A stretch of 64,000 bases of DNA, taken from positions 1 through 64,000 of IMG/VR virus record IMGVR_UViG_3300036715_002161; one strand, given 5' to 3'. Positions within the stretch are counted from its first letter, which is position 1, and each line of letters opens with the position of its first letter. The stretch is from a virus. The translations under genes and the position numbers were made by a program. The notes under the pieces were generated by a model. It had not been told where the DNA came from. It ran no database searches and worked only from the letters and a program-made list of their open reading frames with translations. Below are positions 38,021-63,837 of this stretch, piece after piece.

Positions 38021-38505
38021 TTCAGTTCCTCAGGTATTTCAACTTCTTCACCAAGTGTGTTGGCAACATAACATCGTAGGGCAGCAATGAGTGGAGTTGG
38101 GCCGACATATGTGTCACTTTTGTAAAGTATTATAGATTTGTCTTCGTGCCAGGTAGTGTAGCTCCAATCCCAGGATTGCGATTCTATTGTTGCTACCCAG
38201 TAGTTGCACGGCTTACCTAAATCACGGGAACACTGAAAGATACCAATACCCTCACGCTCAATAATAGGCCACATATCAGCGCCCGTGTACTCAACGGGAT
38301 TACCGAATAGACCTACAGGCTTGCCGTTCAGCAAGAAACGATGCTCCCCTACCTTGTTCTTGTAGGTAGTGTTTGGATTGATGTCATCCCAGTTCCACAC
38401 CTGGGGCACTCTTTCGTTCATTACAACGGCTACTTGCATACCTTCTGCTTTGGCCATCAGCCAGTCGAGCTGCAACTTGGTTGCGTCTGCTACTTTTATT
38501 TTCAT
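38017..38505 (-). CDS. NinX/DUF2591-like paralog 3
   Basis: QLDWLMAK...PIIERE...GPTPLIAALRCYVA..LGEEVEIP. Confidence 0.7.
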   Translation of the reverse strand: MKIKVADATKLQLDWLMAKAEGMQVAVVMNERVPQVWNWDDINPNTTYKNKVGEHRFLLNGKPVGLFGNPVEYTGADMWPIIEREGIGIFQCSRDLGKPCNYWVATIESQSWDWSYTTWHEDKSIILYKSDTYVGPTPLIAALRCYVANTLGEEVEIPEELK

Positions 38506-38559
38506 AGGTAACCCTCCAGAGCCTAGTCTATTTCAACTTCTTGTGCATAGAGTCCGACC

Positions 38560-38844
38560 TCATGTTTTCAACTCCAGATTATGAAGTAAAGTTTCAACTG
38601 CGCACAGCGTCTCCCATGTCGGCGCTTTAGACGTCCCCACTTCCCCGCCGATGCATTCATTCGCCAGCTTGCTTAAGGCCGCCAGCATATCCGGTGCCGC
38701 CGCGATTAAGTGGGCATTTGCTTTTTCGGTTGCTAGAGGAAGCTCCATGTTGTCACATTGACAGATAATACCAATCCCATCCCGTGCGTAAACACGGTGA
38801 GGGTTGGTGCCTTTGACGACCCAGGGGCCTGGTGTATGTCTCAT
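38560..38844 (-). CDS. Conserved phage protein (HTPGPW...ANAHLIAAAPD type)
   Basis: Recognisable motifs; ATGA coupling; GGAG RBS. Confidence 0.7.
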   Translation of the reverse strand: MRHTPGPWVVKGTNPHRVYARDGIGIICQCDNMELPLATEKANAHLIAAAPDMLAALSKLANECIGGEVGTSKAPTWETLCAVETLLHNLELKT

Positions 38845-39080
38845 GTTTTCACTCCATCTAAGATATTCGTTGCATCCCCGGCGGTGATGATGCCCATTAA
38901 ACGCAGTGCAATTACGTTTGGCACTGTTGCCGCAATCCATACGTCATACATACCCGAGGTCCAGTTAGGGTGCTTGCTCTTTTTTATCAGGTCGGGAAGT
39001 TGGGCGATGCCTTTGTCGTTGGCGGCAAAGTGAATGTCCACGCCACGCCGAAAGCCCACGCAGAAAATATCAGGGTTCAT
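38841..39080 (-). CDS. Hypothetical protein
   Basis: ATGA-coupled at both ends; GAGGAG RBS. Confidence 0.6.
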   Translation of the reverse strand: MNPDIFCVGFRRGVDIHFAANDKGIAQLPDLIKKSKHPNWTSGMYDVWIAATVPNVIALRLMGIITAGDATNILDGVKT

Positions 39081-39526
39081 TTCGACTCCTCAATGAGCCC
39101 GCGCCACGGGGCGTGCTTGTACTTTGTGCTCTGATCATGGTGCTTGCACCCGAACTCGTATATCGCATTCTGCTTGCCACAGCCCCAGATGTACCAGACC
39201 TCACCGTCGAAGTAGTGATAGTTATTATCATCATCTTGGACATCGAATAGAGTGTCAGGTATTACTGAGAACTGGCGCTGATACAGGCCTGGTTCTTGGG
39301 GCAGGGTGTATCCGTCCTGCCAACTACTGACCACATAGACTGGCGTGGCCTCAACCCAAACAATATCTTCCTCTTCCTCTTGGCAGATCAAGTGTCCGTC
39401 CTTCCCCCCGGAGCAGTCCTTGGTGTTGTAGTTCTCAAACAGGTAACAGCCGAAGCATAGGCCCTTCCTGGGGGCTGGCATTTTCTTGAGACTCACACCT
39501 TTGATCGTAATAGTTTTGGTTTTCAT
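39077..39526 (-). CDS. Hypothetical protein
   Basis: ATGA-coupled; N-terminal Cys module shared with 37430..38020. Confidence 0.6.
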   Translation of the reverse strand: MKTKTITIKGVSLKKMPAPRKGLCFGCYLFENYNTKDCSGGKDGHLICQEEEEDIVWVEATPVYVVSSWQDGYTLPQEPGLYQRQFSVIPDTLFDVQDDDNNYHYFDGEVWYIWGCGKQNAIYEFGCKHHDQSTKYKHAPWRGLIEESK

Positions 39527-39894
39527 TTCAGATCCTCTGGAATTTCCACTTCGTCACCCAGCTTGCTGGCAACGTAACAGCGCATGGCTGCGATTATAGG
39601 CGTGGGGCCATAACTCCACAGTGCTTTTCTATCTCTATACGTACGTGCTCCCCATCCGGCTGTACCGTTAGGATCTCTTATGATGTCTATGCTTTCCCGC
39701 TCAATAATCGGCCCGACTTCTTCCCAACCCAGGAACGGCGTGTAGCAGGCTGGAGATGGTAGCTCAGGTACAACAATCTGATCACTTGCATAGTGTATCC
39801 CTATTGTTTCTCCCCACACCAAGTGTGGCATCTCTATCATGCAGACGGAATAGCAAAGGGCCTTTCCCGATAGTTCTGCTGTTTTGATTTTCAT
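39523..39894 (-). CDS. NinX/DUF2591-like paralog 4
   Basis: MKIKTAELSGKAL...GPIIERE...GPTPIIAAMRCYVASKLGDEVEIP. Confidence 0.75.
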   Translation of the reverse strand: MKIKTAELSGKALCYSVCMIEMPHLVWGETIGIHYASDQIVVPELPSPACYTPFLGWEEVGPIIERESIDIIRDPNGTAGWGARTYRDRKALWSYGPTPIIAAMRCYVASKLGDEVEIPEDLK

Positions 39895-40002: not shown

Positions 40003-40605
40003 TTAGGACCTTTCCATATCTCTTGCAGTCTCTTGCCATGGCGCTCGGCCTTCACACATTTTGATGAACATCGCTTTTTGAGCTTCTTCCTCAGTATCCC
40101 TATCAGAAGCCCATAGAGTAGCCTGCTCTGCTGCTTGTGGAGCATACTTCGAAGTAACCCAGACAGCAGCGCGAGAAGCATCCCATTCATCGGCGTTCTG
40201 TGCAGCGCGAGCTGCATCCCTAGCAGCAACCCACGCATCAGTTAAGTCCATATCTGTAGCCCTTCCATTGGCGTATAACGTTGCTATGTCCAGAGCTATT
40301 AAGCTATGTGGACTAGTCATCAAGTGTTGTACCCTTCTAGCACACCAAACAGCAAATAGACGTGCGTCTCTTTCTATACCTGGGATACAGCGGAGCGCCC
40401 ATAATGCGTTATCTAGACAGTTACTATGTACTATTGAAGACAGTAGTATATCTCCCTTATGTGCGTAACGTATATAGGATTTTCTAATGGAATCTTTGCA
40501 GGTGAAGGGGAGTCCCTGAAGGCTTCTAACTACCTTGTTATAACTTTCAAAATAGGCTCCTTTTTTACGTAGATCGGAAAGGGTTACTGTAATAGGATAG
40601 TTCAT
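40003..40605 (-). CDS. Ala-rich helical phage protein, paralog of 43814..44395
   Basis: ALWAL..RLFAVWCARRVQHLMT..AA repeats..MCEGRAPWQ. Confidence 0.7.
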   Translation of the reverse strand: MNYPITVTLSDLRKKGAYFESYNKVVRSLQGLPFTCKDSIRKSYIRYAHKGDILLSSIVHSNCLDNALWALRCIPGIERDARLFAVWCARRVQHLMTSPHSLIALDIATLYANGRATDMDLTDAWVAARDAARAAQNADEWDASRAAVWVTSKYAPQAAEQATLWASDRDTEEEAQKAMFIKMCEGRAPWQETARDMERS

Positions 40606-40647: not shown

Positions 40648-40923
40648 CTAAACCAGCGAGTATCCGTCCTCAAAAGCTTTTGCTGGTGAATATGACTGAT
40701 ACCCGTCCTCATATACAACATAGTAGCCGCCCACATCAGGACTGTGCTTTTGCATATATTCATGCGGCACACGAAACGGTTCATACCTCGTGTTGGCTGG
40801 GTGAATCATCATGCTGCCGTCACTCTCATTTCCTGGTTGAGTCGGGTCAACCATGTTGTAAATTTTCAGCGCCCACACTTCCTTGTGGCATCTGTACTTT
40901 GGCATTTCTAAGCTTGCATTCAT
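40648..40923 (-). CDS. Conserved phage protein (GYYVVYEDGY.SYSP..FE.GY type)
   Basis: Motif recognition; AAGGA RBS. Confidence 0.65.
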   Translation of the reverse strand: MNASLEMPKYRCHKEVWALKIYNMVDPTQPGNESDGSMMIHPANTRYEPFRVPHEYMQKHSPDVGGYYVVYEDGYQSYSPAKAFEDGYSLV

Positions 40924-40960
40924 GGTATTTCCTTTGTTGCGCCACACTTCAAGGGCAGTG

Positions 40961-41022
40961 GGCTAACCCTACGTTCGAGCGGACGCTGGTAAAGCGTCAT
41001 GCCCCTCAACTACACGTTATGG
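40961..41022 (+). mobile_element. attC-like site, 62 bp
   Basis: GGCTAAC-CCTAC-GTTCGAG...CTCAAC-TACAC-GTTATGG. Confidence 0.85.
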
Positions 41023-41262
41023 CACACGAACCACTACGCGCCACTTGAATATAAAAAATCCACGCATCTCTACGTGCCCGATCTTTCCTTTTACCATTTC
41101 GTTAAAGCTTTCTACGGTCATCCATCCGTCTATGTCCGTCTTGATCGCCTTGGCTGCTTGAGATACATCCAAGATAATTACTTCTGATAATCCCCATCCG
41201 CAGCGATGGAATAGACATACGTCGCCTTTCTTGTATGCCACTTGTGCTGTTTCGAGTTTCAT
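41017..41262 (-). CDS. Hypothetical cassette protein
   Basis: Stop codon lies in the R' box of the attC at 40961. Confidence 0.6.
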   Translation of the reverse strand: MKLETAQVAYKKGDVCLFHRCGWGLSEVIILDVSQAAKAIKTDIDGWMTVESFNEMVKGKIGHVEMRGFFIFKWRVVVRVP

Positions 41263-41263
41263 T

Positions 41264-41521
41264 TCAATCCCCCTCTATGGTTGTTAAGTTAATTTGGAAA
41301 TACTCAGCCAGCTCGGACCTATTTCTCATTACACTAAAGTAGGTACTGCCAATATTACAATCTTCAGGTTTGGGATAATCGGGGAACTCACCGTCCCAGT
41401 TAACCACGGCTATCTCTGTGCGCCACTGCAAAGCCTGCCCATCAGTCTTGAATAATCGCAGTAGCGTGCAGTACTTAGTAATCCACTGTGCTACTACTAC
41501 GCTTTGCTGTTCTTCACTCAT
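41264..41521 (-). CDS. Hypothetical protein, paralog of 47600..47854
   Basis: MSEEQQSVV..QWRTEIAV.NW..EFPD..AEYFQ..EGD. Confidence 0.65.
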   Translation of the reverse strand: MSEEQQSVVVAQWITKYCTLLRLFKTDGQALQWRTEIAVVNWDGEFPDYPKPEDCNIGSTYFSVMRNRSELAEYFQINLTTIEGD

Positions 41522-42096: not shown

Positions 42097-42150
42097 ATTT
42101 AACCTGGCAGTCTAGCTGACCCTTACAAGTTGCTCACTTTTGCGTTAGGC
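42097..42150 (+). mobile_element. attC-like site, 54 bp
   Basis: ATTTAAC-CTGGC-AGTCTAGC...GCTCACT-TTTGC-GTTAGGC. Confidence 0.75.
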
Positions 42151-42405
42151 CAACTCAAATACATGGAATATTAGGTAGCCTCCGTGAATCCCATAGGTTC
42201 CCACGTACTCGCCCGGACCGTCATGTATTAGATTGCCTGTGCCGTAGGTGGCAAAGTTGCGGGGCACGATAGGTTCCATCTCATCCACTAAAGCCCACAG
42301 TTGTGGTATGCCGTCTTGTGCTTGCACCTTAAGTAGCTTCGCACCCTTGTGGATGTGTAGGGTTTGCAAGTCAGTAACTGTCAGCGTCCATTTCAAAATT
42401 TTCAT
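42145..42405 (-). CDS. Conserved small phage protein
   Basis: MKILKWTL..GAKLL.VQ.Q..LWA.VD..GTG..YVGT..FHVFE; stop lies in attC R'. Confidence 0.7.
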   Translation of the reverse strand: MKILKWTLTVTDLQTLHIHKGAKLLKVQAQDGIPQLWALVDEMEPIVPRNFATYGTGNLIHDGPGEYVGTYGIHGGYLIFHVFELA

Positions 42406-42454
42406 GTTCTCTCCAAGGTTATGCGGGCCATTACTAATATAAATAGAGAGTATC

Positions 42455-42846
42455 TCTCTACTATTGTTATACCAAAATAAGTGTACTTTGACTAAAAAAA
42501 ATAAAGGACCTGGTAAGGTCACCCTTATTTAAAAAACAGCGCTCTGAATTGAGCGCTGCTGTTGTTACATAGCTCCGACCGTGTGGTCATCAAACACCTC
42601 TGATAGACTGGTCTTCAGATACTGTTCTACCTTGTAACACCCATAGGCCGTGATAGAAAGCCCCAGTATACTCAGATAGGTGTCATAGTTGGACTTAAGG
42701 TGATCCAAGACCTTAGATGTAAAACTTGCTTCTTTGGCAGGTGCATTCATTTGTAATACTCCTTATATTATATTTGGACAAACGGTATGTTTTATCCTAC
42801 TATTGTTATACCAAAATAAGTGTACTTTGACTAAAAAAATAAAGGG
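42455..42846 (-). repeat. Promoter-ORF-terminator-promoter module, copy 2
   Basis: Matches 13186-13648; two copies of the TAGTCA-N17-TATAAC promoter; terminator at 42531-42558. Confidence 0.9.
42565..42750 (-). CDS. Small membrane protein, paralog of 13282..13581
   Basis: FTSKVLDHLKSN..DDHTVGAM. Confidence 0.7.
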   Translation of the reverse strand: MNAPAKEASFTSKVLDHLKSNYDTYLSILGLSITAYGCYKVEQYLKTSLSEVFDDHTVGAM

Positions 42847-42895: not shown

Positions 42896-42941
42896 AAACC
42901 CTGACCCGCAAAAGCTTCATCCGGTTAACTCTATGTTATGT
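42896..42941 (+). mobile_element. Truncated attC-like site
   Basis: CCGCAAAAGC..ATCCGGTTAACTCTAT-GTTATGT matches the centre and right arm of the site at 51360; R'' missing. Confidence 0.6.
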
Positions 42942-43202
42942 GTCACTTGGTACGTTGGTTATTTCAGCATTATAGCGAGTATTCCATCGCTCTATTGCCT
43001 GCTCTTTGTCACGCCCGATCCGTTCGATCATCCGGCTTGGGCCAGGGGCTTCAGCGCACCAATGCCGCACCGAAACGCTGACCGGGTCGCTATACCTCAT
43101 GCCAACCCAGACTCTCCCGTTGTCTTTGAATTCGGTTATACCGCCGGGACAAAACGGGCACGGTAGCAACCGCTTCAAATCTTCATCCTTAGCTTCTATC
43201 AT
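42936..43202 (-). CDS. Lar-like (restriction alleviation family) Zn protein
   Basis: LLPCPFCPG...AIERWNTR. Confidence 0.6.
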   Translation of the reverse strand: MIEAKDEDLKRLLPCPFCPGGITEFKDNGRVWVGMRYSDPVSVSVRHWCAEAPGPSRMIERIGRDKEQAIERWNTRYNAEITNVPSDT

Positions 43203-43539: not shown

Positions 43540-43547
43540 TTCTCCTT

Positions 43548-43583
43548 TTCAAAGTGCCTCACTTCAAAGGTAGGCGGTTAACC
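43548..43583 (-). repeat. Dispersed 36-bp leader element B
   Basis: TTYAAAGTGCCKCACTTYAARGGTAGGCGGYTAACC; other copies at 48990-49025, 49338-49373, 49615-49651, diverged 40939-40968, partial 47375-47390. Confidence 0.85.
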
Positions 43584-43817
43584 TTAGCCACCTATGCGCC
43601 GGTACTCCATGCATACAGTATCTGTGACCGTCTGCATGGTTGCTATCTTCCCTATATACATTGGCTGTATATGTGTGCGATACACAGGATTCACGCATTC
43701 CCAGTCGCCTTTCTTAAGTTCAAATGTTGGCTGATTGATTTCTTTCCATAAGCCAACACTAACAACAGCAAAGATGCCTGTTAAGATAACTACTATAATC
43801 CATTCCATACGATTCAT
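43584..43817 (-). CDS. Small membrane-anchored protein
   Basis: N-terminal TM segment; GAGGAG RBS; ATGA coupling. Confidence 0.6.
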   Translation of the reverse strand: MNRMEWIIVVILTGIFAVVSVGLWKEINQPTFELKKGDWECVNPVYRTHIQPMYIGKIATMQTVTDTVCMEYRRIGG

Positions 43818-44395
43818 ATTTTCTCCTCTGTTTGCCATGGCGCTCGGCCTTCACACATTTTGATGAACATCGATTTCTGAGCATCTTCCTCAGAAGCTCC
43901 AGTAGCAGCCCTAGCAGCAAACGCAGCAGCCCCCGCAGCAGCCTTAGCAGCCCTAGCAGCAAACGCAGCAGCAAACGCAGCAGTCCCTTCAGTAGTCCAC
44001 GCAGCAGCATTCGCAGCAGTCCACGCAGCAGCCAATTCAGAATCCGTAGCCTCTCCATTGGCATAGCGCTCAGCTACGTCTGGCGCGGCTATGCTGCGTG
44101 GATCAGTCATCAAGTGTTGCACCCTCCTAGCACACCAAACAGCAAATAGGCGGGAGTCCCTTTCTGTACCTGGAATACATAGGAGAGCCCACAGGGCATC
44201 ACCCAGGCAATTACTAGAGACTATGGAAGCCAACGGTAGAGGCCCCCTATGTTCGTAGCTGATGTAGTATTCTCGGGTGGAATCCAGGCTGGTGAACGGG
44301 AGTCCCTGAAGGCTTCTAACTACCTTGTTATATCCATTAAAGCAGGCTCTTTTTTTACTTAGGGAGGAAAGGGTTATTGTTAGCGGGTAGTTCAT
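43814..44395 (-). CDS. Ala-rich helical phage protein, paralog of 40003..40605
   Basis: Shared N- and C-termini. Confidence 0.7.
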   Translation of the reverse strand: MNYPLTITLSSLSKKRACFNGYNKVVRSLQGLPFTSLDSTREYYISYEHRGPLPLASIVSSNCLGDALWALLCIPGTERDSRLFAVWCARRVQHLMTDPRSIAAPDVAERYANGEATDSELAAAWTAANAAAWTTEGTAAFAAAFAARAAKAAAGAAAFAARAATGASEEDAQKSMFIKMCEGRAPWQTEEKI

Positions 44396-46382: not shown

Positions 46383-46407
46383 ATCAATCCCCTTGGTTAT
46401 GGGTTAC

Positions 46408-47076
46408 TTACAGGGTTTCTTTAAAGTGCTTCATTGTAACTGGGCAGACGGCAGTCGCCAGTTCCAGTAAAGCCTCAGCGTACACCCGGATTTCGTACTG
46501 GGCATGTGCATGAAGTCGAAGACGCAAGAAGTGCATGAGGTTGTGTAGGTCGACCGAGGCAAACATATGGCTGTAGGTACCCGTAGTGAGTACTGACCTG
46601 GCTAGCTCTCTTGGACAGCCTTCCCTGATGAGGCTCTGGTATACCTCAAAGCATGAGTTGTTGGCAGCATCGATAGTCAGCTGGAATTTGCTGGCTAATG
46701 GATGTACTTCCTCAGTCCTCATTTGTTTATTGTCCTTGCTTTGCGTGGTTATTTGAGCCAGCTCCGGTACGTAGTACTCTTCTGGTAGCTCTGCGTACCT
46801 AGCACTAACTTCATTGTAGCTCCAGGTGCGGTGGCGGTGCCACTGTCTCAATACGAAGATGGGGGCCTTCACCTCAAAGGTGAACTGCACCGACTCAAAG
46901 GGGCTTGTGTGTTTGTTATTCAGCAGGTACTTGATGAGCTTCTCATCCTTACCCGAATCCTCTCCTGTGCGCCACTCCGCTGCATAGCTTACGCGAGCTG
47001 CCCGCACTATGGATAGATCACTGCCCATACTATCTACTAGCCTGACTAACCCACGGTCCAATACTTTGAATTCCAT
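46408..47076 (-). CDS. thyX: Flavin-dependent thymidylate synthase
   Basis: AARVSY, HTSPFE, RQWHRHRTWSYNEVSARY, ELARSVL, HAQYEIR. Confidence 0.95.
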   Translation of the reverse strand: MEFKVLDRGLVRLVDSMGSDLSIVRAARVSYAAEWRTGEDSGKDEKLIKYLLNNKHTSPFESVQFTFEVKAPIFVLRQWHRHRTWSYNEVSARYAELPEEYYVPELAQITTQSKDNKQMRTEEVHPLASKFQLTIDAANNSCFEVYQSLIREGCPRELARSVLTTGTYSHMFASVDLHNLMHFLRLRLHAHAQYEIRVYAEALLELATAVCPVTMKHFKETL

Positions 47077-47096
47077 TTTAATCTCCTGTAGTTCGT

Positions 47097-47370: not shown

Positions 47371-47598
47371 TTAGGGGTAGGCGGCTAACCTTACTTTGGG
47401 GCGTAGCGGGCACCATTTTGGTATCGCCTGTTTATTATCGTTCCATTTGCGCAGAGCTATACGCTTGTTGTGATGTGCTTTGCATGTCCACTCATCTATT
47501 GACTCGAATACATCCGCTTTGTGGAAGCGTTTGCTCTCATGATTAGGGCACCACCCGCAGTCCGCCACTGTCCTTATAAACTGTACTGTTTCAGTCAT
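47371..47598 (-). CDS. Cys-rich small protein
   Basis: CGWCP..C..IPKWCPL. Confidence 0.6.
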   Translation of the reverse strand: MTETVQFIRTVADCGWCPNHESKRFHKADVFESIDEWTCKAHHNKRIALRKWNDNKQAIPKWCPLRPKVRLAAYP

Positions 47599-47599
47599 T

Positions 47600-47854
47600 T
47601 CAATCCCCCTCCATGGTTGTGAAGAAAGTTTGGAAATACTCGGCCCGCTCAGTCATATTGCTCATTAGATAAAAGTATATGCAGCCAATATCACAATATT
47701 CAGGTTCAGGATCATCAGGGAACTCATCGGCCCAGTTAGCCACGGCTATCTCTGTGCGCCACTGAAAAGCCTGCTCCTTAGTCTTGAACACCCGCACCTC
47801 TGTGCTATCTACTGTTTTGTATAATGCTACTACGCTTTGCTGTTCTTCACTCAT
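47600..47854 (-). CDS. Paralog of 41264..41521
   Basis: Shared motifs. Confidence 0.65.
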   Translation of the reverse strand: MSEEQQSVVALYKTVDSTEVRVFKTKEQAFQWRTEIAVANWADEFPDDPEPEYCDIGCIYFYLMSNMTERAEYFQTFFTTMEGD

Positions 47855-47881: not shown

Positions 47882-48073
47882 CTATTCATGCTCGGCCCTG
47901 GCCTCAAGTACCCTGTAGTCCTTACTGTACTGATCGTTTAATTCCCCCCACAGTGGGTCATCTGCTGTGAGTTTGGTAGGCTTATGCGCCCAAATCTCAT
48001 TTGTTATCGCTGCACCCACTATACCTCCCATGACCATTGAGACCGAAGCCAAAAGCAAATCGTGGTTAATCAT
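47882..48073 (-). CDS. Small membrane protein
   Basis: TM segment; GGAG RBS. Confidence 0.5.
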   Translation of the reverse strand: MINHDLLLASVSMVMGGIVGAAITNEIWAHKPTKLTADDPLWGELNDQYSKDYRVLEARAEHE

Positions 48074-48293
48074 TTTCTACTCCGTAACTTGGTGTAAAAC
48101 AAGTTGAACAAACGCAGCACACGCAACATTCAATATCTGGCCGATCATTATCCTCAAAGCTTTTAATGTCTTGCTCAGTATATCCTGCATCTTTCCGGTT
48201 TTTTGCACTCCAGTCACCACTCCCTCCACCCCAATCAGAATCAAGGCGAAAGTGTCCAATTCTTGTGCTTTTACAGTTAGGGCAAATCTGCAT
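48066..48293 (-). CDS. Zn-ribbon protein, paralog of the N-terminus of 51623..52048
   Basis: MQICPNCKSTRIG...RPDIECCVCCVCSTCFTPS. Confidence 0.65.
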   Translation of the reverse strand: MQICPNCKSTRIGHFRLDSDWGGGSGDWSAKNRKDAGYTEQDIKSFEDNDRPDIECCVCCVCSTCFTPSYGVEND

Positions 48294-48976: not shown

Positions 48977-49024
48977 AGTTTAATTTCCTTTTAAAGTTCC
49001 GCACTTTGAAGGTAGGCGGCTAAC

Positions 49025-49324
49025 CTACCAAATAGCAACCAACTTTCGTCCGTTTGCTTTGTCGCCATCTATCAGTTCAATCCTAACGCCAGGAACAAAA
49101 GTAATTGCTTCGGCTACATTATCACCTTGCTGCGTAGTTACTTGTACAACACACCCAACACCATCAATCTGCATTGCCTTTGTTGACTTCATCCACCCTT
49201 GCGCCGTGGAGGATGCTTTGCAAATAAGCTGGAATGTATCACCATTGCCAAACACTTTCAAGTCGTTAATATTCGCAGTTGCTCCTTTCACCTCTGTGAT
49301 GTCCATCAATTTAGGTTCTGTCAT
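49025..49324 (-). CDS. Conserved phage protein
   Basis: VFGNGDTFQLICKASS..GWMKSTKAM..GCVVQVTTQ; RBS follows element B. Confidence 0.7.
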   Translation of the reverse strand: MTEPKLMDITEVKGATANINDLKVFGNGDTFQLICKASSTAQGWMKSTKAMQIDGVGCVVQVTTQQGDNVAEAITFVPGVRIELIDGDKANGRKLVAIW

Positions 49325-49417
49325 CTTACTTTCCTCTTTCAAAATGCCGCACTTCAAAGGTAGGCGGTTAACCTCTTGCTCCGTATCAAATACGTTCAAG
49401 CGGATTATGTAGCACTG

Positions 49418-49600
49418 TCATTTCGGCTTAGTGGCGTCTCCGATGTTCTTCATCACACCTTTGAGTGCAGTAGCGGTATGAGGCTCATCCTTATCGGTGA
49501 GTGCTCCTCCCATTGTTATCACGTCAGCGACAATCGCAACAGGTGTTTCGACAACAACACCAATAACTGCCTTGGTCAAATTCTCAAGTAATCCAAACAT
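49418..49600 (-). CDS. Small hydrophobic protein, paralog of 50241..50435
   Basis: MFG.L.NLTKA....TPVA.V.D..T. Confidence 0.65.
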   Translation of the reverse strand: MFGLLENLTKAVIGVVVETPVAIVADVITMGGALTDKDEPHTATALKGVMKNIGDATKPK

Positions 49601-49674
49601 AGTCTATTCATCCTTTTAAAGTGCCTCACTTCAAGGGTAGGAGGCTAAACCATTTTCTCGGTATCTGGTGCATA

Positions 49675-49935
49675 TCACGGGTTAGGCCACTCTGCCACGG
49701 TGGTAACGTCCTTCGATGCTCCGCACCGTATGCACAAATAGCCTGTGGTAGCCCACTTCAACCCGTCGCTGTCTGGTTGCAGGTCTAACATTCCACATGT
49801 GACCGACCATCGGTGCAAACCAAGCCAACAAAGCATCGGCGTGTACCCAACTTTTGCCGCCAACGATTGCTTCTGGCCTAACCCTACATTCGAGAGGGAC
49901 GCTCCTTCAGCAGTTTCATTATTGTTTGAGTTCAT
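49675..49935 (-). CDS. Cassette protein starting inside an attC loop
   Basis: N-terminal SLSNVGLG is encoded by the attC arm; LCWLGLHRW..CIRCG. Confidence 0.6.
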   Translation of the reverse strand: MNSNNNETAEGASLSNVGLGQKQSLAAKVGYTPMLCWLGLHRWSVTCGMLDLQPDSDGLKWATTGYLCIRCGASKDVTTVAEWPNP

Positions 49936-49964
49936 CAGTCGCGCCCCTCAATTCAGCGTTAGCC
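49876..49964 (+). mobile_element. attC-like site, 89 bp
   Basis: GCCTAAC-CCTAC-ATT[C]GAGAGGG[A]CGC...GCGCCCCTCAAT-TCAGC-GTTAGCC. Confidence 0.9.
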
Positions 49965-50203
49965 ACCTCAAACTGAGATCCGTGGTAAACCTCTTTATTC
50001 GTGTAGTCTGAGATTTGCCACATTCCAGACCCTTCGTTAAACCACCACGCTAGATCTGGATAATTATCGTCCGGCTTGCTTAACTGGAATAGCGTCCCAC
50101 CTACTTTCCTTAGGTGCGTAGCTGCGGCACGTCTAGTGGCTAACACTTTGGTCAAGCGGGACTGGCCGTCAGCGGCTTCGGTTGTTTCTTGTGTTTCACT
50201 CAT
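49919..50203 (-). CDS. Cassette protein starting in one attC loop and stopping in the next
   Basis: N-terminal GQSRLTKVLA and C-terminal ANAELRGA are attC-encoded. Confidence 0.65.
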   Translation of the reverse strand: MSETQETTEAADGQSRLTKVLATRRAAATHLRKVGGTLFQLSKPDDNYPDLAWWFNEGSGMWQISDYTNKEVYHGSQFEVANAELRGATDELKQ

Positions 50204-50251
50204 TGCTTATCTCCTGTTGTTGCGGCCAGCCCCTTACCTTCTACGTTATGT
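50138..50251 (+). mobile_element. attC-like site, 114 bp
   Basis: GGCTAAC-ACTTT-GGT[C]AAGCGGG[A]CTGGCCG...CGGCCAGCCCCTTACC-TTCTAC-GTTATGT. Confidence 0.9.
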
Positions 50252-50435
50252 CACTATCTATGGCCTTGTTAACGCTCTTTCCAGCCGCATTAAGTAAGTC
50301 GCCAGTGCGTCCGAATGGGTGGTCATCCTCATGGTCAGCACTTGCGAATAATGTCAATATATCAACTACGAGTGCGACTGGTGTTAATGCCACGGCAACT
50401 GCTGCCTTTGTCAAATTTCTAAGTATTCCAAACAT
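50241..50435 (-). CDS. Small hydrophobic cassette protein
   Basis: Paralog of 49418..49600; stop lies within an attC. Confidence 0.65.
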   Translation of the reverse strand: MFGILRNLTKAAVAVALTPVALVVDILTLFASADHEDDHPFGRTGDLLNAAGKSVNKAIDSDIT

Positions 50436-50454
50436 TTTTCTCTTTCAAAGTTAT

Positions 50455-50472
50455 ACCTAACCCGCGTTAGGT
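50455..50472 (+). mobile_element. Collapsed attC (R''-R' only)
   Basis: Perfect inverted repeat ACCTAAC-CCGC-GTTAGGT. Confidence 0.6.
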
Positions 50473-50921
50473 GCTTCCAAATGCTGAAGCTCCAGATAAA
50501 AACGGTGATACTCGGCAATCCGCTCGACGTCCTTCGGGCGCACGCCCTTTAGTCGGCGAATGTCGCTGTTGTGGCGCAGGTCTGCCATCTTCACCATCAC
50601 TGCGTCAGGATTTGCTTTTACTCGTGCCTTGTAGTCGTCGTATGCCTCGCCATCAACCTTGGTGAGCGCCACGATGCCGGCAATTACGCGCTCGGAAAAA
50701 CCGTTGTAGCGCAGCGTTCCGACGCCATCCTCTACACGCTTAAATGTGTCTTCCACAAGGTCGTGCCCAAGGGCAATACACATCAGTTCCTCGTCGTCGG
50801 TCTTCAAGTAATGCATCACCTTCAGCGGGTGCAGGATGTACGGGTTTCCACCCTTGTCAAACTGGCCGTCATGTCGGTTTGTCGCCAGCACAAGCATTCT
50901 GGAAAGCTGCTCGCCTTTCAT
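50457..50921 (-). CDS. HD-domain protein, small alarmone hydrolase (RelA/SpoT HD)-like
   Basis: H.GQ.DK.G.PYILHP, GHDLVED, ALTK, VKMADLRHN. Confidence 0.85.
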   Translation of the reverse strand: MKGEQLSRMLVLATNRHDGQFDKGGNPYILHPLKVMHYLKTDDEELMCIALGHDLVEDTFKRVEDGVGTLRYNGFSERVIAGIVALTKVDGEAYDDYKARVKANPDAVMVKMADLRHNSDIRRLKGVRPKDVERIAEYHRFYLELQHLEAPNAG

Positions 50922-50953
50922 TTGTCGCCACCTTTCTCTGTAGTTGCCGCCGC

Positions 50954-51005
50954 ACCTAACAAGTCGTTGCAGGCGGCGGCCAGCCCTTTACCCCCTACGT
51001 TAGCG
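50954..51005 (+). mobile_element. attC-like site, 52 bp, apparently hybrid
   Basis: ACCTAAC-AAGTC-GTTGCAG...; right arm CGGCCAGCCCTTTACCCCCTAC-GTTAGCG resembles the site at 50138. Confidence 0.75.
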
Positions 51006-51338
51006 TCCATCATCTTCACGCATGATGTCGCCGTTGAGTTCGATCCGTTTACGGTCAAGCTGGCGGACTGTTTCGATCACATCGCTTGCCCAAAAAACCT
51101 CGGCCTGGGTGTACTTAGTGCCATATTCTCTGTTTATAATCTGAGCCTTGTACTCGGCAGCAAACCAAGACCGCCCAGCAAAGGTATATGCCACGGCAGC
51201 CAACCCGGCGGTAATCGCCAAAAGGAATCCGAGCACCCCAGCCATAGTGCCTATGCCGTCATAGGTTTCTCTGCTGTACCACATCAGTGCTACTGCAATA
51301 ACGCTAGCTGCAATAATTGCTACAAGTATTAAAATCAT
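51000..51338 (-). CDS. Two-TM membrane cassette protein
   Basis: AAGGAG RBS; stop lies in attC R'. Confidence 0.65.
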   Translation of the reverse strand: MILILVAIIAASVIAVALMWYSRETYDGIGTMAGVLGFLLAITAGLAAVAYTFAGRSWFAAEYKAQIINREYGTKYTQAEVFWASDVIETVRQLDRKRIELNGDIMREDDGR

Positions 51339-51359
51339 CTTTATCTCCTTCAAAGTTAT

Positions 51360-51422
51360 GCCTAACCCTACGTTAAACCCGGACTCCGCAAAAGCGCGTA
51401 TCCGATTAACTCTACGTTATGC
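51360..51422 (+). mobile_element. attC-like site, 63 bp
   Basis: GCCTAAC-CCTAC-GTTAAACCCGGA...TCCGATTAAC-TCTAC-GTTATGC. Confidence 0.85.
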
Positions 51423-51626
51423 GTCACTTGGTGTATAATCTGCGTTAGGCGCCTTCCAGTTTTCATAATTAGCTCTTATGCGGTTGCATCGGTGACAATC
51501 GCACATAGCATCGTATGACTCATAGTTGCTAGTTGCTTTCAGGTAGGATATCCACTCGTGAACGGCAGCTAACCCGGCGTTCGAGCGCACGGGCAACGGC
51601 GCGGCTTCTTTTTCAGCTTCGTTCAT
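51417..51626 (-). CDS. Cassette protein starting inside an attC loop
   Basis: LPVRSNAGLA is attC-encoded; CDCHRC. Confidence 0.6.
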   Translation of the reverse strand: MNEAEKEAAPLPVRSNAGLAAVHEWISYLKATSNYESYDAMCDCHRCNRIRANYENWKAPNADYTPSDA

Positions 51627-51671
51627 GGTTTCTCCTCGCGCCGTTCCCCGGCGCTCAACTTTGCGTTAGGC
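51567..51671 (+). mobile_element. attC-like site, 105 bp (clearest example)
   Basis: AGCTAAC-CCGGC-GTT[C]GAGCGC[A]CGGG.AACGGCGCG...CGCGCCGTT.CCCGGCGCTCAAC-TTTGC-GTTAGGC. Confidence 0.93.
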
Positions 51672-52048
51672 ATCACCTCCCACCAAGTCTGTGGAGCGTA
51701 TCTTTCAAGCGGGGAATCGAAGTCCCCCAAGTACAATTTGCCATCGTCGCCCTGCAAAACAGTGTGGTATTGGTCACGGTCATGTGAATTAAACAATGTG
51801 TCCCCTGCCTTGATTTCAGTTCCGTTCTTGTCTTGCATTGCGTCACTTGGTGTAAAACAAGTTGAACATACGCAGCACACGCAACATTCAATATCTGGCC
51901 GCTCGTTATCCTCAAAGCTTTTAACGTCTTGCTCGGTATACCCTGCGTCTTTCCCGTTTTCTGCACCCCAATAACCGCTCCCTCCATAATTATGATTGAT
52001 GCTAAGGCGTCCAATTCTTGTGCTTTTACAGTTAGGGCAAATTTGCAT
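51623..52048 (-). CDS. Chimeric protein: Zn-ribbon module plus YopX-like DKNGTEIKAGD module
   Basis: First half is near-identical to 48066..48293; C-terminal PNAKLSAG is attC-encoded. Confidence 0.65.
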   Translation of the reverse strand: MQICPNCKSTRIGRLSINHNYGGSGYWGAENGKDAGYTEQDVKSFEDNERPDIECCVCCVCSTCFTPSDAMQDKNGTEIKAGDTLFNSHDRDQYHTVLQGDDGKLYLGDFDSPLERYAPQTWWEVMPNAKLSAGERREEKP

Positions 52049-52071
52049 AACTCTCTCCTATTTAACACCGT

Positions 52072-52099
52072 GCCTAACAAATCATTCCAGGCGTTATAC
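52072..52099 (+). mobile_element. Internally deleted attC-like site
   Basis: GCCTAAC-AAATC-ATTCCAGGC-GTTATAC. Confidence 0.6.
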
Positions 52100-52471
52100 C
52101 TTGCCCAAAATATGAGACAGTGCCCAGTATTCTGGGTTGAAAAACGCCGCCACAATCCCCTGCGCTGATCCAATCACTACCACCTGAGTGGTAATAAAAT
52201 AAACAGCTGTTGCAATCCATGCCAAAACTGCGCCTTCGTGTTCCCATTCAGCTTCTGGGTATTTATTATATTCAGTCTTAGCTGGTTTTGTGGTTTTATC
52301 TTTAACAAACCGCATCAAGACAATTGCCAATATCACCATCACGATGTCCGTAACTAAATCAATGCCACCACTTATAGGCGCTTGGTGCAGCAAAACATCC
52401 CACAAATGCTGTGCTGTTGTTCCAAGCTTCTCGGCCAGTTTCTCAATCAGCGCTGTTGTTTTATCGTCCAT
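52094..52471 (-). CDS. Conserved two-TM phage membrane protein
   Basis: IEKLAEKLGTTAQHLW..L..QA...FNPEYWAL; stop lies in R'. Confidence 0.75.
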   Translation of the reverse strand: MDDKTTALIEKLAEKLGTTAQHLWDVLLHQAPISGGIDLVTDIVMVILAIVLMRFVKDKTTKPAKTEYNKYPEAEWEHEGAVLAWIATAVYFITTQVVVIGSAQGIVAAFFNPEYWALSHILGKV

Positions 52472-53139: not shown

Positions 53140-53151
53140 GGTCTATGTTTA
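53123..53151 (-). promoter_or_regulatory. Early promoter driving the cassette region
   Basis: TAAACA-N17-TATAAG with an extended TG. Confidence 0.6.
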
Positions 53152-54120
53152 AAACTCTGGTAACTCTACTATTTCTGGGTTAAGTGCGTCCTTCAACTTA
53201 TCAAATAAGGGCTCTGCTCCCTGCGGATTCAATTGGTTAAACCACCCCAACCTTCCCGTTAGGTAGTTTTTAAACTCTCCAGAGGTCATACTATTCTTGA
53301 CCGCCTCAGGTTCAAGTCCATAAAGACTTACGTTGTGAACCATGGCCCGAAGCTTTTTACGCTCATGTCTGATCAGATTAGTTTTCTGATTTACTACTAC
53401 CCCACATACATAGTGTCGATTCTTTTTGGTCATAACCTTGGTTTTGGCATTATTAATCTTAAAGCCAAAAGTGGTCAAGGTCTGTTTAATAAAAGCCAAG
53501 ACCTCGCCTATTTCCATTCTCCCAGTGGAGGAAATAGTAATGTCATCGGCATAGATCGTCAAGGTAAGATCTCTTTCTCTACAGTACGATTCTAAGATGG
53601 GGCCAAAAGTCTTAGCTATTACCAGGTTACTAATCTTAGGGCTTGTAATGGCTCCTTGTGGGACAAAGAATTTATAAGTACAAAGTTCAGAAATCAGTCT
53701 TGCTGGTTTAGGACCAAATCCATCATCAGTAAAGATTTTCATCAAATGGTCTTGATGTATACTGGTAAAGAAGTCATTAAGATCGACGCTTACTACTACG
53801 CTTTTGCCCACATGACTCTGAGCCATCTTAGGTATAGATCTGGCCTTTTCAAAAGCATGAATATATCCAGGTATATCATAAGTACTCAAGACTCTGCTAA
53901 GTAGTCTATATTGAACTAATCTCATTTGCCCAGAAGGATTGTAGATATTCCTAAAGCCTCCAGATCTTTTAGGAATCCGAAAGAAGCTGTAATGTTCTAA
54001 TTTGTTCAGACCAAGCCAAGTCAGCCTCCGAGCATTCCCCACTTCCAATATCTGAGATAATTCCAGGTTTGTCTCTGGTCGCACGAACGGGGGTGGAGGT
54101 AACTGCATTTGATCCGACAT
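53149..54120 (-). CDS. Retron-type reverse transcriptase (323 aa from MSDQ)
   Basis: FRIPKRSGGFRNI, MAQSH (region X variant), DLNDFFTSI, PQGAITSPKISN, YADD, VCGVVVN (region Y variant); AGGA RBS before 54120. Confidence 0.92.
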   Translation of the reverse strand: MSDQMQLPPPPFVRPETNLELSQILEVGNARRLTWLGLNKLEHYSFFRIPKRSGGFRNIYNPSGQMRLVQYRLLSRVLSTYDIPGYIHAFEKARSIPKMAQSHVGKSVVVSVDLNDFFTSIHQDHLMKIFTDDGFGPKPARLISELCTYKFFVPQGAITSPKISNLVIAKTFGPILESYCRERDLTLTIYADDITISSTGRMEIGEVLAFIKQTLTTFGFKINNAKTKVMTKKNRHYVCGVVVNQKTNLIRHERKKLRAMVHNVSLYGLEPEAVKNSMTSGEFKNYLTGRLGWFNQLNPQGAEPLFDKLKDALNPEIVELPEF

Positions 54121-54377
54121 AAACTTTCCTTTTAAGTAATTGTAATCCAGAGGCTGGGTATAGTTTTTTGTTATAAGATAAAAAACCATTTTTAAGAACA
54201 GAGGGGGTCATATCTAAATGAACAAATAATCTAGACTCTACCCCTATAACTACTCGGAAATAATCCCAGGCCTCATCCTGCTGATTAAAAATGGCGAAAG
54301 TATTCTTTTTGTATACAAGATCTGGGCTTTGACCTTTATATCCTTTCGGATGGATGGCCGTTTCAACCGTCATAAGA
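54121..54377 (-). ncRNA. Candidate msr/msd-like structured RNA upstream of the RT
   Basis: 10-bp inverted repeat 54186-54195/54285-54294 encloses hairpin 54204-54244; ATCC-GAAA-GGAT hairpin at 54340-54351. Confidence 0.45.
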
Positions 54378-61946: not shown

Positions 61947-62834
61947 TTAGGCCGCCAACAAAATAGCCTTATCAAATTCTATAGAAGCTATTTTCATCAG
62001 AGTATCAATATTTGATCCGGGAAGGGTATAACCGCTCTGCCAGGAGTCTTGACTTACTAATTCTCTCAAGTATTTAAAATCTGTATGCCTATAAATACAC
62101 CCAGAGTCTAACCCGATGTCAATTCTGTGGTAATCAATATCTTTGGCATAGTAGATATTTTGTACCACAGAAAAAGCCGTGGCCGCAACCAAAACATTAA
62201 TAGCCATAGTCTGATCCAGGTCAGCGCAGCTGGCCGTAGAAGTAGTCTCAACCATCTGATTAAAATAGTCTACATCCATATACAGAGAAGGTACTCTAAC
62301 ACTAAAGGGGACACTCTTATTACTTATAAGTTTTTCCAAGATTTCTCCAGAGGCTTGACATGCACTTGGACTACTAGTCCCCATTACTTTTACCTGGCCA
62401 TAATTATCTCCATTACCAGTATCTATGATTATGCCTACCACTGAATTGGCGGAAATCCATGCCTGAATATCTTTCCTAGAGGATACCGAGTCTACACATA
62501 GTATGTGTAATGCTACTTCACCATACTCCATAGTATTAGACTGTGAATCTGTAATTGAGGTAGTCTCTGCCTTAATATTAATATCATAGGCTTTGGCATA
62601 CCGAGCAGCTAATACCTCTGACTTATATTTACCGACGTCAGAAGTCACAAAATTTTGTCTACTTAAATTTTTAGCCTCTACAGTGTCAAAATCAAAAAGG
62701 ACAATCTCCGGATTAATTACATGTGGCAGACTTTTAAGAAACTGAGCCACCAATGGAACCAGTCTAGAACCAGTTCCACCACATCCATGTATGTATACTT
62801 TGTTAGGAAATAGGCTTGAAGTGTTATATATCAT
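61947..62834 (-). CDS. ThiF/E1-like adenylyltransferase (PRTRC-like)
   Basis: GCGGTGS, DFDTVEAKNLSRQNF, CVDS, DTGN, SCADLDQ. Confidence 0.9.
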   Translation of the reverse strand: MIYNTSSLFPNKVYIHGCGGTGSRLVPLVAQFLKSLPHVINPEIVLFDFDTVEAKNLSRQNFVTSDVGKYKSEVLAARYAKAYDINIKAETTSITDSQSNTMEYGEVALHILCVDSVSSRKDIQAWISANSVVGIIIDTGNGDNYGQVKVMGTSSPSACQASGEILEKLISNKSVPFSVRVPSLYMDVDYFNQMVETTSTASCADLDQTMAINVLVAATAFSVVQNIYYAKDIDYHRIDIGLDSGCIYRHTDFKYLRELVSQDSWQSGYTLPGSNIDTLMKIASIEFDKAILLAA

Positions 62835-62841
62835 TTCTTAT

Positions 62842-63837
62842 TTATCCTATAAATCCGTTGGTCGCATAGTGTCTTCTGCCATTTTCTGTCAGATTCTGAT
62901 AGGCTTCATTAATAATAAGTTTTAGATTTTCATCATTGTGATGATTGTCCATTACAAAATCAAGGGCATCTCCGATTATATATTCATAGTCATCATCCCC
63001 TAGTCCTACGGGATCAATGTCTTCCAGTCGTCTACGTCTACCACCATTATCAAAATCTACGGGAGGGATAATATAATCATCCTCTTGAAAGCCATACAGC
63101 TTAGAGCTTTCCTGGTCATAAAAAGGAGTGATCTGTCCGTATTTGGGGGGATAATTATGTGGCTCCGGAACAGAAATTTGATCTAGCCAGGTAGGATCGA
63201 TTTGTACTATGTCCAAAGAGGGTATCTCAAAGATCTCATCAACTTGTACTGGATAGTTAAGTTCACGGAAGTTGAACCGGAACACCATGGTAGGCTCCTT
63301 GTCCAGATTACCAATTACTCCTGAATAATAGATACAGCCTTTATCATTATTATTGTCTGTACCACTAAAGAAGCTACTCATTGTATTATGGGAGTGCATG
63401 TCTAAGACAATAATACTGCCTGATGGTAGAGTGCTTGCATCATACGAAAAAGATACTGCCGCCTTTGATACCGTCTGTTTCGGGACCGAGACATGATACC
63501 CCTTTTCTTTTGTCCATAAGACAAAACAGTGGGCTTCATATTCAGCCTTCTTATGAGTAATTACTTCTTTAAAAAACTTGGTGATTTGATGGAGAATAGA
63601 CTTTGGGATTTTGCCATCTGGTAAGAAGTTCAGTTCCTCTTTTAATTTGTCTCCGTCACCAACTGCTTCTGCCGGTAGGCTTGGGATTTTCAGGCGGACA
63701 CTACGACCACCTACCAGGTTTTGATGTTTTAGAAACCCATCAGAAGTCGTTACATAGATGGTTGAATAGGATCCGACTACATCTTTGAATTCATCTTCTG
63801 AACAAACACAGGAGACATATGGTACAAGAATTTTCAT
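62842..63837 (-). CDS. JAB/MPN+ metallopeptidase (PRTRC protein A-like)
   Basis: EAH...VPKQTVS...DMHSHNTMSSFFSGTD. Confidence 0.88.
   Translation of the reverse strand: MKILVPYVSCVCSEDEFKDVVGSYSTIYVTTSDGFLKHQNLVGGRSVRLKIPSLPAEAVGDGDKLKEELNFLPDGKIPKSILHQITKFFKEVITHKKAEYEAHCFVLWTKEKGYHVSVPKQTVSKAAVSFSYDASTLPSGSIIVLDMHSHNTMSSFFSGTDNNNDKGCIYYSGVIGNLDKEPTMVFRFNFRELNYPVQVDEIFEIPSLDIVQIDPTWLDQISVPEPHNYPPKYGQITPFYDQESSKLYGFQEDDYIIPPVDFDNGGRRRRLEDIDPVGLGDDDYEYIIGDALDFVMDNHHNDENLKLIINEAYQNLTENGRRHYATNGFIG

Follow-up and report, generated by a model that had tools for sequence, protein, structure and literature searches.

Integron-type attC sites in a jumbo-type phage: bottom-strand genes, candidate start codons in hairpin loops and neighbour-dependent protein tails

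RESULTS

The locus

We analysed a window of 64 000 nt, the first 64 kb of the 138-kb linear record IMGVR_UViG_3300036715_002161 (estimated to be 78% complete), for a group of hairpins that resemble attC sites, the recombination sites of integron cassettes, and for the small genes lying between them. The source is a jumbo-type phage, and the window holds split multisubunit RNA polymerase genes of the kind carried by jumbo phages. Between ~37 and 53 kb small genes follow one another on the minus strand, with a G+C content of 0.45–0.50 compared with ~0.42 elsewhere in the window; the hairpins lie within this run. A sequence-only reading of one part of it had taken the hairpins for attC sites that contain translation signals, so that cassettes would borrow stop codons from their neighbours. 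Sites and array genes are listed in Table 1, together with the reverse transcriptase gene at the head of the array; the latter scores 65 bits with a group II intron model, and Rfam showed no group II intron. Rfam (gathering thresholds) and tRNA scans of the window yielded no matches. A blastn search of 49600-52100 against GenBank phages matched the HD-domain gene alone (50457..50921), whose DNA is 72–87% identical to that of phosphohydrolase genes in phages of enterobacteria, Acinetobacter and Ralstonia; the array itself was seen in none of the GenBank phages.

Table 1. Sites, array genes and the reverse transcriptase gene at the head of the array (R1, covariance model described in the text; ORF, open reading frame)
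Feature	Position	Strand	Description	R1 score
attC	51567..51671	+	Well-formed; R′′ AGCTAAC, 5-nt spacer, long loop, L′, 5-nt spacer, R′ GTTAGGC	77.5 bits
attC	50138..50251	+	Well-formed; three extra top-strand bases in L′′; unit recurs in locus L008	77.6 bits
attC	49876..49964	+	Well-formed	92.4 bits
attC	51360..51422	+	Short, 63 nt; R′ TTA 51417-51419 is the stop of ORF 51417..51626	59 bits
attC	40961..41022	+	Short; R′ TTA is the stop of ORF 41017..41262	56.4 bits
attC	42097..42150	+	Weaker, untrained; R′ TTA is the stop of ORF 42145..42522	23.5 bits, E 0.003-0.005
Mini-site	50455..50472	+	Collapsed: R′ box, four bases (GCGG), R′′ box	11.9 bits, E 1.5, weak
Degenerate site	50954..51005	+	R′ TTA is the stop of ORF 51000..51353; one arm like attC 50138	8.8 bits, E 8.2, weak
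Collapsed site	52072..52099	+	R′-like TTA is the stop of ORF 52094..52471	9.1 bits, weak
Remnant R′ end	42923..42941	+	From a degenerate site like 51360; TTA is the stop of ORF 42936..43202	8.9 bits, weak
ORF	51623..52048	-	141 aa; Cys-rich gene fused in frame to a ~58-aa cassette gene (MQDKNG...WWEV)	
ORF	51417..51626	-	69 aa; residues 1 to ~22 from the loop and L′′/R′′ arm of attC 51567-51671; core from ~23	
ORF	49919..50203	-	94 aa; leader in attC 50138-50251; core ends ...FEVAN on the R′ box of attC 49876-49964	
ORF	49675..49935	-	86 aa; start in the loop of attC 49876-49964; ends ...WPNP just past a GCCTAAC box	
ORF	50241..50435	-	64 aa; last codon and TAG stop 3-5 nt past the crossover of attC 50138-50251	
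ORF	50457..50921	-	HD-domain phosphohydrolase-like cassette gene; ends ...PNAG on a TAG inside mini-site 50455-50472	
Reverse transcriptase, retron-type	53149-54189		Head of array; best NCBIfam match retron St85 family, 190.7 bits (cut-off 235)	

The hairpins are attC sites whose top strand is the plus strand

All five well-formed window sites carry the inverted core boxes R′′ (RYYYAAC) and R′ (GTTRRRY), in which CTAAC and GTTA are invariant. A strict scanner, which demanded the core boxes, spacers of 4–7 nt, a stem of at least 9 bp and bulges on one arm only, returned three plus-strand sites from the complete 138-kb record, all in 49.8–51.7 kb, and one weak minus-strand site. At these three sites unpaired spacers of 5 nt and 5–6 nt lie between the R box and the L′′/L′ stem. 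Extra top-strand bases are found in L′′ (CA at 51567, CAA at 49876 and CCA at 50138) and the bulges are confined to the 3′ arm of the minus strand; the extra C and extra A of attC 51567 correspond to an extrahelical G and T on the bottom strand. The bulge pattern of sites 51360 and 40961 is less regular.

From the five window sites in plus orientation a covariance model, R1, was built. At E < 0.01 it recovered six sites in the window, five of them training sites and one untrained, all on the plus strand and all between 40.9 and 51.7 kb. Weak matches at 45201, 50455, 52072, 42923 and 50954 likewise lie on the plus strand inside the array, and in the remaining 74 kb of the record no match reached E ≤ 1. 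When R1 was run on 50 kb of plasmid R100 (NC_002134), the sole match with E < 1 was the aadA1 attC site (36 bits, E 2.9e-6), which lies in sense orientation to that gene. The plus strand of the phage therefore corresponds to the top strand of canonical sites, and relative to the usual layout the phage genes are antisense. With the phage sites the aadA1 cassette (In2/Tn21) shares the order RYYYAAC, spacer, L′′ with extra C and A, loop, L′, spacer and GTTRRRY.

Covariation was examined in 25 aligned sites. Paired bases occupy 88.9% of the cells and 11 of the 16 pairs show double-sided changes; compensatory cells number 62, compared with 21.4 in shuffles (0 of 500 reach 62) and at most 14 in slid controls, in an alignment that was fitted to R1 and thereby favours this result. 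RNA-fold Z-scores of the five window sites (-5.3, -1.4, -3.5, -1.9 and -0.4) are not uniformly better than those of shuffles. Boxes, spacers, one-arm bulges and the recognition by R1 of both the aadA1 site and bacterial arrays (see below) bear out the earlier assignment: the window sites are attC sites, and their top strand is the plus strand of the window.

Clusters of attC sites lacking an integrase (CALINs) comprise at least two co-oriented attC sites with no integrase nearby; the array has six at E < 0.01, all on the plus strand. It is filed as a CALIN and not as an integron, in which intI with attI and the promoter Pc would adjoin the array: no PF00589 match was found on the 138-kb record (78% complete), and the reverse transcriptase gene stands at the head of the array instead. 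Within 49.8–51.7 kb the sites are spaced by 173 to ~1100 nt, and larger multi-gene gaps occur elsewhere.

One site family with opposite gene polarity in bacterial and viral contigs

The textbook integron cassette is a promoterless unit of gene and then attC that is read from Pc. A 17-nt motif derived from the window sites matched six IMG/VR loci. R1 found co-oriented arrays in L004 (9 sites) and L006 (~15 sites) as well as sites in L002, L001 and L008. The reverse complement of the motif matched 26 bacterial loci, 22 of which contain R1 sites (59 in total). These are mostly from Beta- and Gammaproteobacteria and include Gallionellaceae, Burkholderiales, Methylococcaceae, Stutzerimonas, Acidithiobacillus and Lysobacter. 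Chromosomal integrons are known from these groups.

We compared the strand of the longest ORF between neighbouring sites. In the bacterial loci it was the top strand in 30 of 35 intervals and the bottom strand in 5, and Pfam domains on the top strand were SIR2_2, Trypsin_2 and DUF938 (three ORFs). In the phage and the related viral contigs it was the bottom strand in 12 of 18 intervals and the top strand in 5, with one tie; the bottom-strand domains are an HD domain, a C5 methylase and a pentapeptide protein. Those of the top-strand ORFs that come from the window are spurious, as they overlie Pfam-supported minus-strand genes. Since the HD domain of 50457..50921 is encoded on the minus strand, this is the coding strand. 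Canonical cassettes have the ORF on the top strand with attC 3′ of the gene, whereas all cassette genes of the window are on the bottom strand. A single family of sites is thus associated with opposite gene polarity in bacterial and viral contigs.

One of the five bottom-strand bacterial intervals, L028:4951-5514, contains a 187-aa ORF without Pfam match that begins 38 nt past one site and stops 4 nt short of the next, a layout as in the phage cassettes. We also considered L004 as a complete integron and rejected this, as its recombinase (3626-4759) is only a weak XerC match and has no NCBIfam integron-integrase match.

The attC site recurs with the gene behind it

That the start region travels with its gene had been proposed from the window alone, and comparison with two other loci agrees with it: attC and the downstream gene recur as a unit in L006 and L008 beside unrelated neighbours. 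Window 41021-40647 matches L006:2960-3334 with 88.8% identity over 375 nt, covering the whole attC site 40961 and the following gene (40648..40947). The homology begins at CATAAC and breaks off 4–5 nt short of the next ...TAA box; the genes upstream are not related to each other. The unit of attC 50138 and its gene has a counterpart in L008 (90% amino-acid identity) in which both neighbours differ. Here too homology begins at CATAAC and stops just before the next box; the upstream gene of L008 is a different one that ends on the TAA of the box, and downstream follow a collapsed mini-site and a homolog of window 47371..47598. As the recurring units consist of attC and the gene behind it, attC belongs to the downstream gene, as predicted from bulge polarity.

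Of the runs listed for the stretch, four are DNA metagenomes and none is an RNA run. Weak further evidence comes from the contigs of these four, one of which (X1) may be the source sample and is thus not independent; the likeness threshold was 90 and the short sides of joins measured 21–39 nt. These contigs contain many alternative joins, and attC 51360 and attC 40961 have loose ends on either side, a weak hint of population mosaicism with sites common to several contexts. Summed contig depth over 51126-51676 is 2–7 times that of the flanks in all four runs, which fits the presence of attC 51360 and/or 51567 in many contexts in those communities.

Candidate start codons and stop codons inside the sites

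On the minus strand the loop of attC 51567 reads GAGGAG (51632-51637), five bases and ATGA (51623-51626), so that the TGA at 51623-51625 closes ORF 51623..52048 and the ATG at 51624-51626 opens ORF 51417..51626. The loop of attC 50138 holds AGGAGA (50210-50215) and the ATG (50201-50203) of ORF 49919..50203. In the loop of attC 49876 lie the ATG (49933-49935) of ORF 49675..49935 and, 14 nt further on, the TAA (49919-49921) of ORF 49919..50203. These arrangements are as the sequence-only reading had them, and the peptides that it read from the arms, SLSNVGLG, QSRLTKVLA and VRSNAGLA at N-termini and ANAELRG and PNAKLSA at C-termini, all occur in the ORF translations. The likely Shine-Dalgarno sequence at 49876 is GAGGGG and is part of the L-box stem, as is that of L002:487-579; at 51567 and 50138 it lies in the open loop or at its edge. 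The proposed gating of ribosome-binding sites by the hairpin is possible for the two stem cases, going by position, and would be less likely where the Shine-Dalgarno sequence is in the loop.

We counted loop starts as a Shine-Dalgarno sequence with ATG or GTG inside a site, opening an ORF of at least 45 codons, and considered long sites (at least 85 nt). Of 10 viral sites, six have such a start on the bottom (gene) strand and one has it on the top strand, compared with none of 11 bacterial sites on either strand. The loop sequences of the window, L002, L004 and L008 are related to each other (ATGAA...GAAAC) and the leaders are rich in N, E and T. Short sites have the Shine-Dalgarno sequence and ATG 10–40 nt past the site instead; for example, the gene behind attC 51360 has its ATG 22 nt past the site and GGAGAT upstream of it.

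The genes 41017, 42145, 42936, 51000, 51417 and 52094 each stop on the TAA of a ...TAAC box, as had been noted. For 26 viral sites, nine upstream genes stop on the R′ TAA, seven run on in the AAC (Asn) frame and one in the third frame, six stop before the site, and three cases are ambiguous or without ORF; 8 of 23 assessable genes therefore end on a stop of the neighbouring unit. The sole clear gene in the third frame is ORF 50241..50435. A reading-frame bias across R′, a point raised by the sequence-only reading, is found in mild form (9 TAA, 7 AAC and 1 third frame), suggestive at n = 17 genes. Within the first 23 nt, 1.77 frames are closed on the viral gene strand and 0.96 on the top strand; the bacterial values are 1.49 and 0.86. 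A three-frame stop set as an adaptation of the phage was rejected as a strong claim, the bacterial sites being nearly alike (1.49 versus 1.77). Overlaps of the coupling type are present at 51567 (ATGA), 49876 (17 nt) and in L008 (ATGA), with none at the other sites. Judged by sequence logic, translational coupling would be kept after shuffling only in one of the three entering frames (AAC) and at sites 51567 and 49876.

C-terminal tails change with the neighbour

The last 15 residues of ORF 51623..52048 (PNAKLSAGERREEKP) are encoded by attC 51567-51671, the site of its neighbour. Fifteen homologs (family A4) match only the second half of this ORF, with a core of ~58 aa; their tails, 6–40 aa after WWE(V/K), differ in 15 of 15, and (H/P)N stands at the boundary in 8 of them. 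The Cys-rich half is paralogous to 48066..48293, and no attC lies between the fused halves.

For ORF 49919..50203 the neighbouring attC 49876-49964 supplies the tail AELRGATDELKQ. In all seven homologs (family A3) the attC-encoded leader is kept in front of the conserved core, which ends ...FEV(x)xN throughout, and the tails after this Asn differ in 7 of 7. Three share ELRG, from similar neighbouring arms, and then diverge; others read GYAPSK..., SV, GLSSGETPP or AHD. A scan of the metagenome contigs with the A3 alignment returned 153 pattern matches, and no relative is encoded at any of them.

Homologs of ORF 51417..51626 (family A5; 26 matches, 14 aligned) carry the attC-encoded leader in the 3 closest of 14 and lack it in the 11 more distant ones, which start 7–12 residues before the core. 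After WK(A/P)xN the three closest have three different endings: V and a stop, a 36-aa run-on, or, in the window, ADYTPSDA. The latter lies past an internal GCCTAAC box, with the R′ TAA of site 51360 as its stop; the Cys-rich gene family normally has this C-terminus, and here a second box comes after it. Tails thus diverge past the box Asn in families A3, A4 and A5, in agreement with the suggestion that C-termini are swapped with the neighbour; identical tails irrespective of the neighbour, which would have spoken against it, were looked for, and the tails differ in 7 of 7 and 15 of 15 homologs and in the three A5 endings.

The point of fusion in ORF 51623..52048 is exactly where other copies show ...TPSDA, a stop and attC, and two database homologs of this ORF are fused to different upstream ORFs.

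DISCUSSION

A proposed cassette cluster with genes on the bottom strand

We propose that the region from 40.9 to 52.1 kb is an integrase-less integron-type cassette cluster, a CALIN, in which every gene lies on the attC bottom strand, and that it operates by the steps given below; we would put the probability of this reading at roughly 0.7. The crossover point, dictated by attC polarity, would be the G↓TT of the R′ box when the top strand is read, or AA↓C when the gene strand is read. As the genes are inverted relative to attC polarity, it would fall just after the ...TAA of each gene, and the mobile unit in gene direction would be C, attC, a short leader or none, the gene and ...RYYYAA. With attC located, on the mRNA, on the 5′ side of the gene to which it belongs, the Shine-Dalgarno sequence and start codon could shift into the terminal loop, which tolerates sequence changes; the first 15–22 codons could then pass through the L′′/R′′ arm, and the leader would always move with the gene. 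At the other end, a unit usually finishes with TAA, and a gene in that frame would end within its own cassette. In the other frames a gene would read AAC as Asn (or xTA ACx), enter the attC of the next unit and stop at the first stop there, at an offset of 8, 10 or 14 or in the loop. The last 1–40 residues and the stop codon of such a run-on gene would thus vary with the neighbour.

Site structure, polarity, inverted gene strand, unit boundaries and neighbour-dependent tails are observed. To these the proposal adds that a host integron integrase would shuffle the cassettes by acting on the folded minus strand of the phage, for which unit boundaries and the divergence of tails at the R′ box are indirect evidence, that the loop starts would be used for translation and that overlaps such as ATGA would give translational coupling; we infer the latter two from the arrangement of the codons. 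A more far-reaching idea, tentative and with the odds somewhat against it, is that phages keep and exchange their own pool of mirror-image cassettes. Here attC, lying in front of the gene and present on the mRNA as its recombinogenic bottom strand, would be a recombination site and a portable initiation module with a leader in one, and also a three-frame stop for any gene that lands upstream, so that cassettes placed by a host integrase would be expressed anywhere in a phage operon, tails and fusions being a by-product.

Several points weigh against the proposed cluster. No PF00589 match, that is, no tyrosine recombinase, was found on the 138-kb record (78% complete), and NCBIfam does not place the recombinase beside the L004 array among the integron integrases, so that the sites have no enzyme linked to them. 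Only 6 of ~45 gene junctions in 37–53 kb have a site at E < 0.01; many genes are coupled head to tail without one and several sites are collapsed or degenerate, and much of the region may have lost the ability to recombine. Homology breaks off within ~5 nt of the crossover and not exactly at it. The metagenome joins 47602>51415 and 48077>51417 occur without attC, with short fillers and short sides of 21–32 nt. The viral nature of L004 and L006 rests on the IMG/VR label. Loop starts in 6 of 10 viral sites are really 5 of 9 independent ones, since L008 and window 50138 represent one cassette, and the frame bias of 9/7/1 comes from 17 genes. Early stops are mostly intrinsic to the site family, because the bacterial sites nearly match the viral ones.

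Much of this would also be expected if the sites were fossils of bacterial integron cassettes, reshuffled by homologous or illegitimate recombination between the 55–120-nt hairpins or boxes, with the overlaps due to genome compaction; repeated stem-loop modules are thought to mediate such recombination in T4-type phages. The record without an integrase, the collapsed and degenerate sites, the attC-less fusion of two genes in ORF 51623..52048, the two joins without attC and the absence of a site from most junctions of the region all favour this account. We nevertheless regard it as unlikely. In both DNA comparisons (2/2) attC is retained complete beside the downstream gene, with breaks within ~5 nt of the R′ box at both ends, and in three families the tails diverge directly past the AAC codon. 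The best sites have retained extrahelical bases and covarying stems, which argues for continued selection on the fold. Finally, phage attC sites recombine with IntI1 in the experiments of Qi et al. 2023 (section 3.4; PMC9892861).

A narrower objection concerns the loop starts, which might be unused if true initiation took place past the sites and the long ORFs ran through the arms by chance. All three window genes (3/3) have an in-frame GTG or TTG downstream of the loop ATG, the leader is missing in 11 of 14 homologs of ORF 51417..51626, and at 49876 the Shine-Dalgarno sequence is within the stem. The downstream alternatives lack a Shine-Dalgarno sequence, however, whereas each loop start has one at a distance of 5–9 nt. 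Together with the bias of loop starts towards the gene strand of long viral sites (6/10, against 1/10 on the opposite strand and 0/11 in long bacterial sites), the mutual relatedness of the loops across the window, L002, L004 and L008, and the signals 10–40 nt past short sites, this makes the objection very improbable. That the hairpins are ordinary terminators or regulatory stem-loops unrelated to integrons would suit their intergenic placement and the good folding of some, but is hardly credible given that R1 singles out the aadA1 attC in 50 kb and detects co-oriented arrays at 22 of the 26 bacterial loci, that no T-run follows the stems, and that core boxes, spacers and one-sided bulges are all present.

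Relation to known systems

Two elements of the proposed cluster have been published, namely attC clusters in phages and the borrowing of stop codons at attI1. CALINs in phage genomes were reported by Qi, Rajabal, Ghaly, Tetu and Gillings (2023, Front Microbiol, PMC9892861), and five of six phage attC sites tested there recombined with IntI1 at G↓TT. As in the present record, attC sites and cassettes lie in virulent or uncharacterised phages with no integrase nearby; bottom-strand genes, loop starts and neighbour-dependent tails are not described in the accessible part of that paper. At attI1 the frames of ORF-11 and ORF-18 (Hanau-Bercot and others; review PMC8876359) span the crossover and take their stop from the neighbouring cassette, either from its core site (ORF-11) or from further in (ORF-18), with translational coupling to the next gene. 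Phage genes in the run-on frames likewise cross the crossover and obtain their stop from the neighbour. ORF-11 and ORF-18 are leader peptides of 11–18 aa on the canonical strand of class 1 integrons, whereas the phage frames are full-length genes on the opposite strand at attC x attC junctions.

In the canonical cassette the gene is on the top strand and attC follows it (R100 and 30 of 35 bacterial intervals); in the phage cassette the gene is on the bottom strand, attC precedes it and the 3′ end of the gene abuts the crossover. Hairpins of attC sites have been described as translation barriers that are relieved by short ORFs inside attC (Jacquier et al. 2009, as summarised in PMC8876359; PMC11511950 covers related work). 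There, attC structure in the mRNA affects both the passage of ribosomes and the expression of the next cassette, and it may do so in the phage. The published cases concern a top-strand fold downstream of a gene, in contrast to the phage, where the bottom-strand fold holds the initiation region of the gene itself.

The toxin–antitoxin cassettes of sedentary chromosomal integrons are often inverted. They carry their own promoter (PMC13108822) and resemble the phage cassettes in their Pc-independent expression, and inverted cassettes are also present in the bacterial arrays (5 of 35 intervals). Among canonical cassettes they are a minority, whereas the phage arrays consist of ordinary small phage genes and have the inverted form as a rule. 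The 'reverse' integron of Treponema denticola (PMC4909258) similarly departs from the geometry of the class 1 model, but there intI is inverted relative to the array, whereas in the phage the gene is inverted relative to its own attC.

What is new is the combination: whole viral arrays with bottom-strand genes, initiation regions in the loops and neighbour-dependent tails. We found no description of bottom-strand cassette genes with starts in attC loops in searches of open-access papers and bioRxiv preprints. The inverted layout changes the start and end points of a cassette, draws the recombination site into the coding and initiation sequence, and makes protein C-termini dependent on gene order. 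It also suggests, in concrete and testable form, how a host enzyme could serve phages in the shuffling of small accessory genes, and it bears on the origin of cassettes and on the variation in attC loop length. For annotation it carries a warning, as the first 15–22 and last 1–40 residues are site-encoded and may be non-functional.

Further observations in the region

The mini-sites at 50455-50472 and L008:3245-3262, which have the same form, look like attC sites from which everything between the spacers has been deleted, and genes read through them. At 51417-51450 two R′ boxes are 27 nt apart; the stretch between them corresponds to the last codons of the Cys-rich gene family and looks like a cassette cut down to its 3′ end. 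A 38-nt module is present in five copies just upstream of genes (40932-40969, 43547-43584, 48989-49026, 49337-49374 and 49614-49651) and also occurs in L008. It comprises an R′′-like GGTTA(A/G)CC, a small hairpin and the ribosome-binding site AAAGGA(G), and may be the 5′ leader that remains after loss of attC, or a phage promoter module.

ORF 35771-36808, which adjoins the array, was considered as an integrase and this identity was ruled out. Several pairs of paralogous genes and a 92-nt repeat, in four copies that span gene junctions, occur in the small-gene region (40003-40605 and 43814-44395; 41264-41521 and 47600-47854; 37029-39604), with no attC between them. The ThyX-like gene at 46388-47089 is 99% identical in two other IMG/VR contigs (L003:5955-6657 and L005) in which the downstream neighbours differ, and a 31-nt junction segment near it (46386-46416) recurs in L003. 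Elsewhere in the window, genes for a ThiF (E1-like) and a JAB-domain protein lie side by side at 61947-63837, and plus-strand genes at 6609-6824, 8659-9001 and 23343-25976 contain in-frame tandem repeats of 27 nt (six copies) and 69 nt (four copies) as well as repeated blocks of 100–240 nt.

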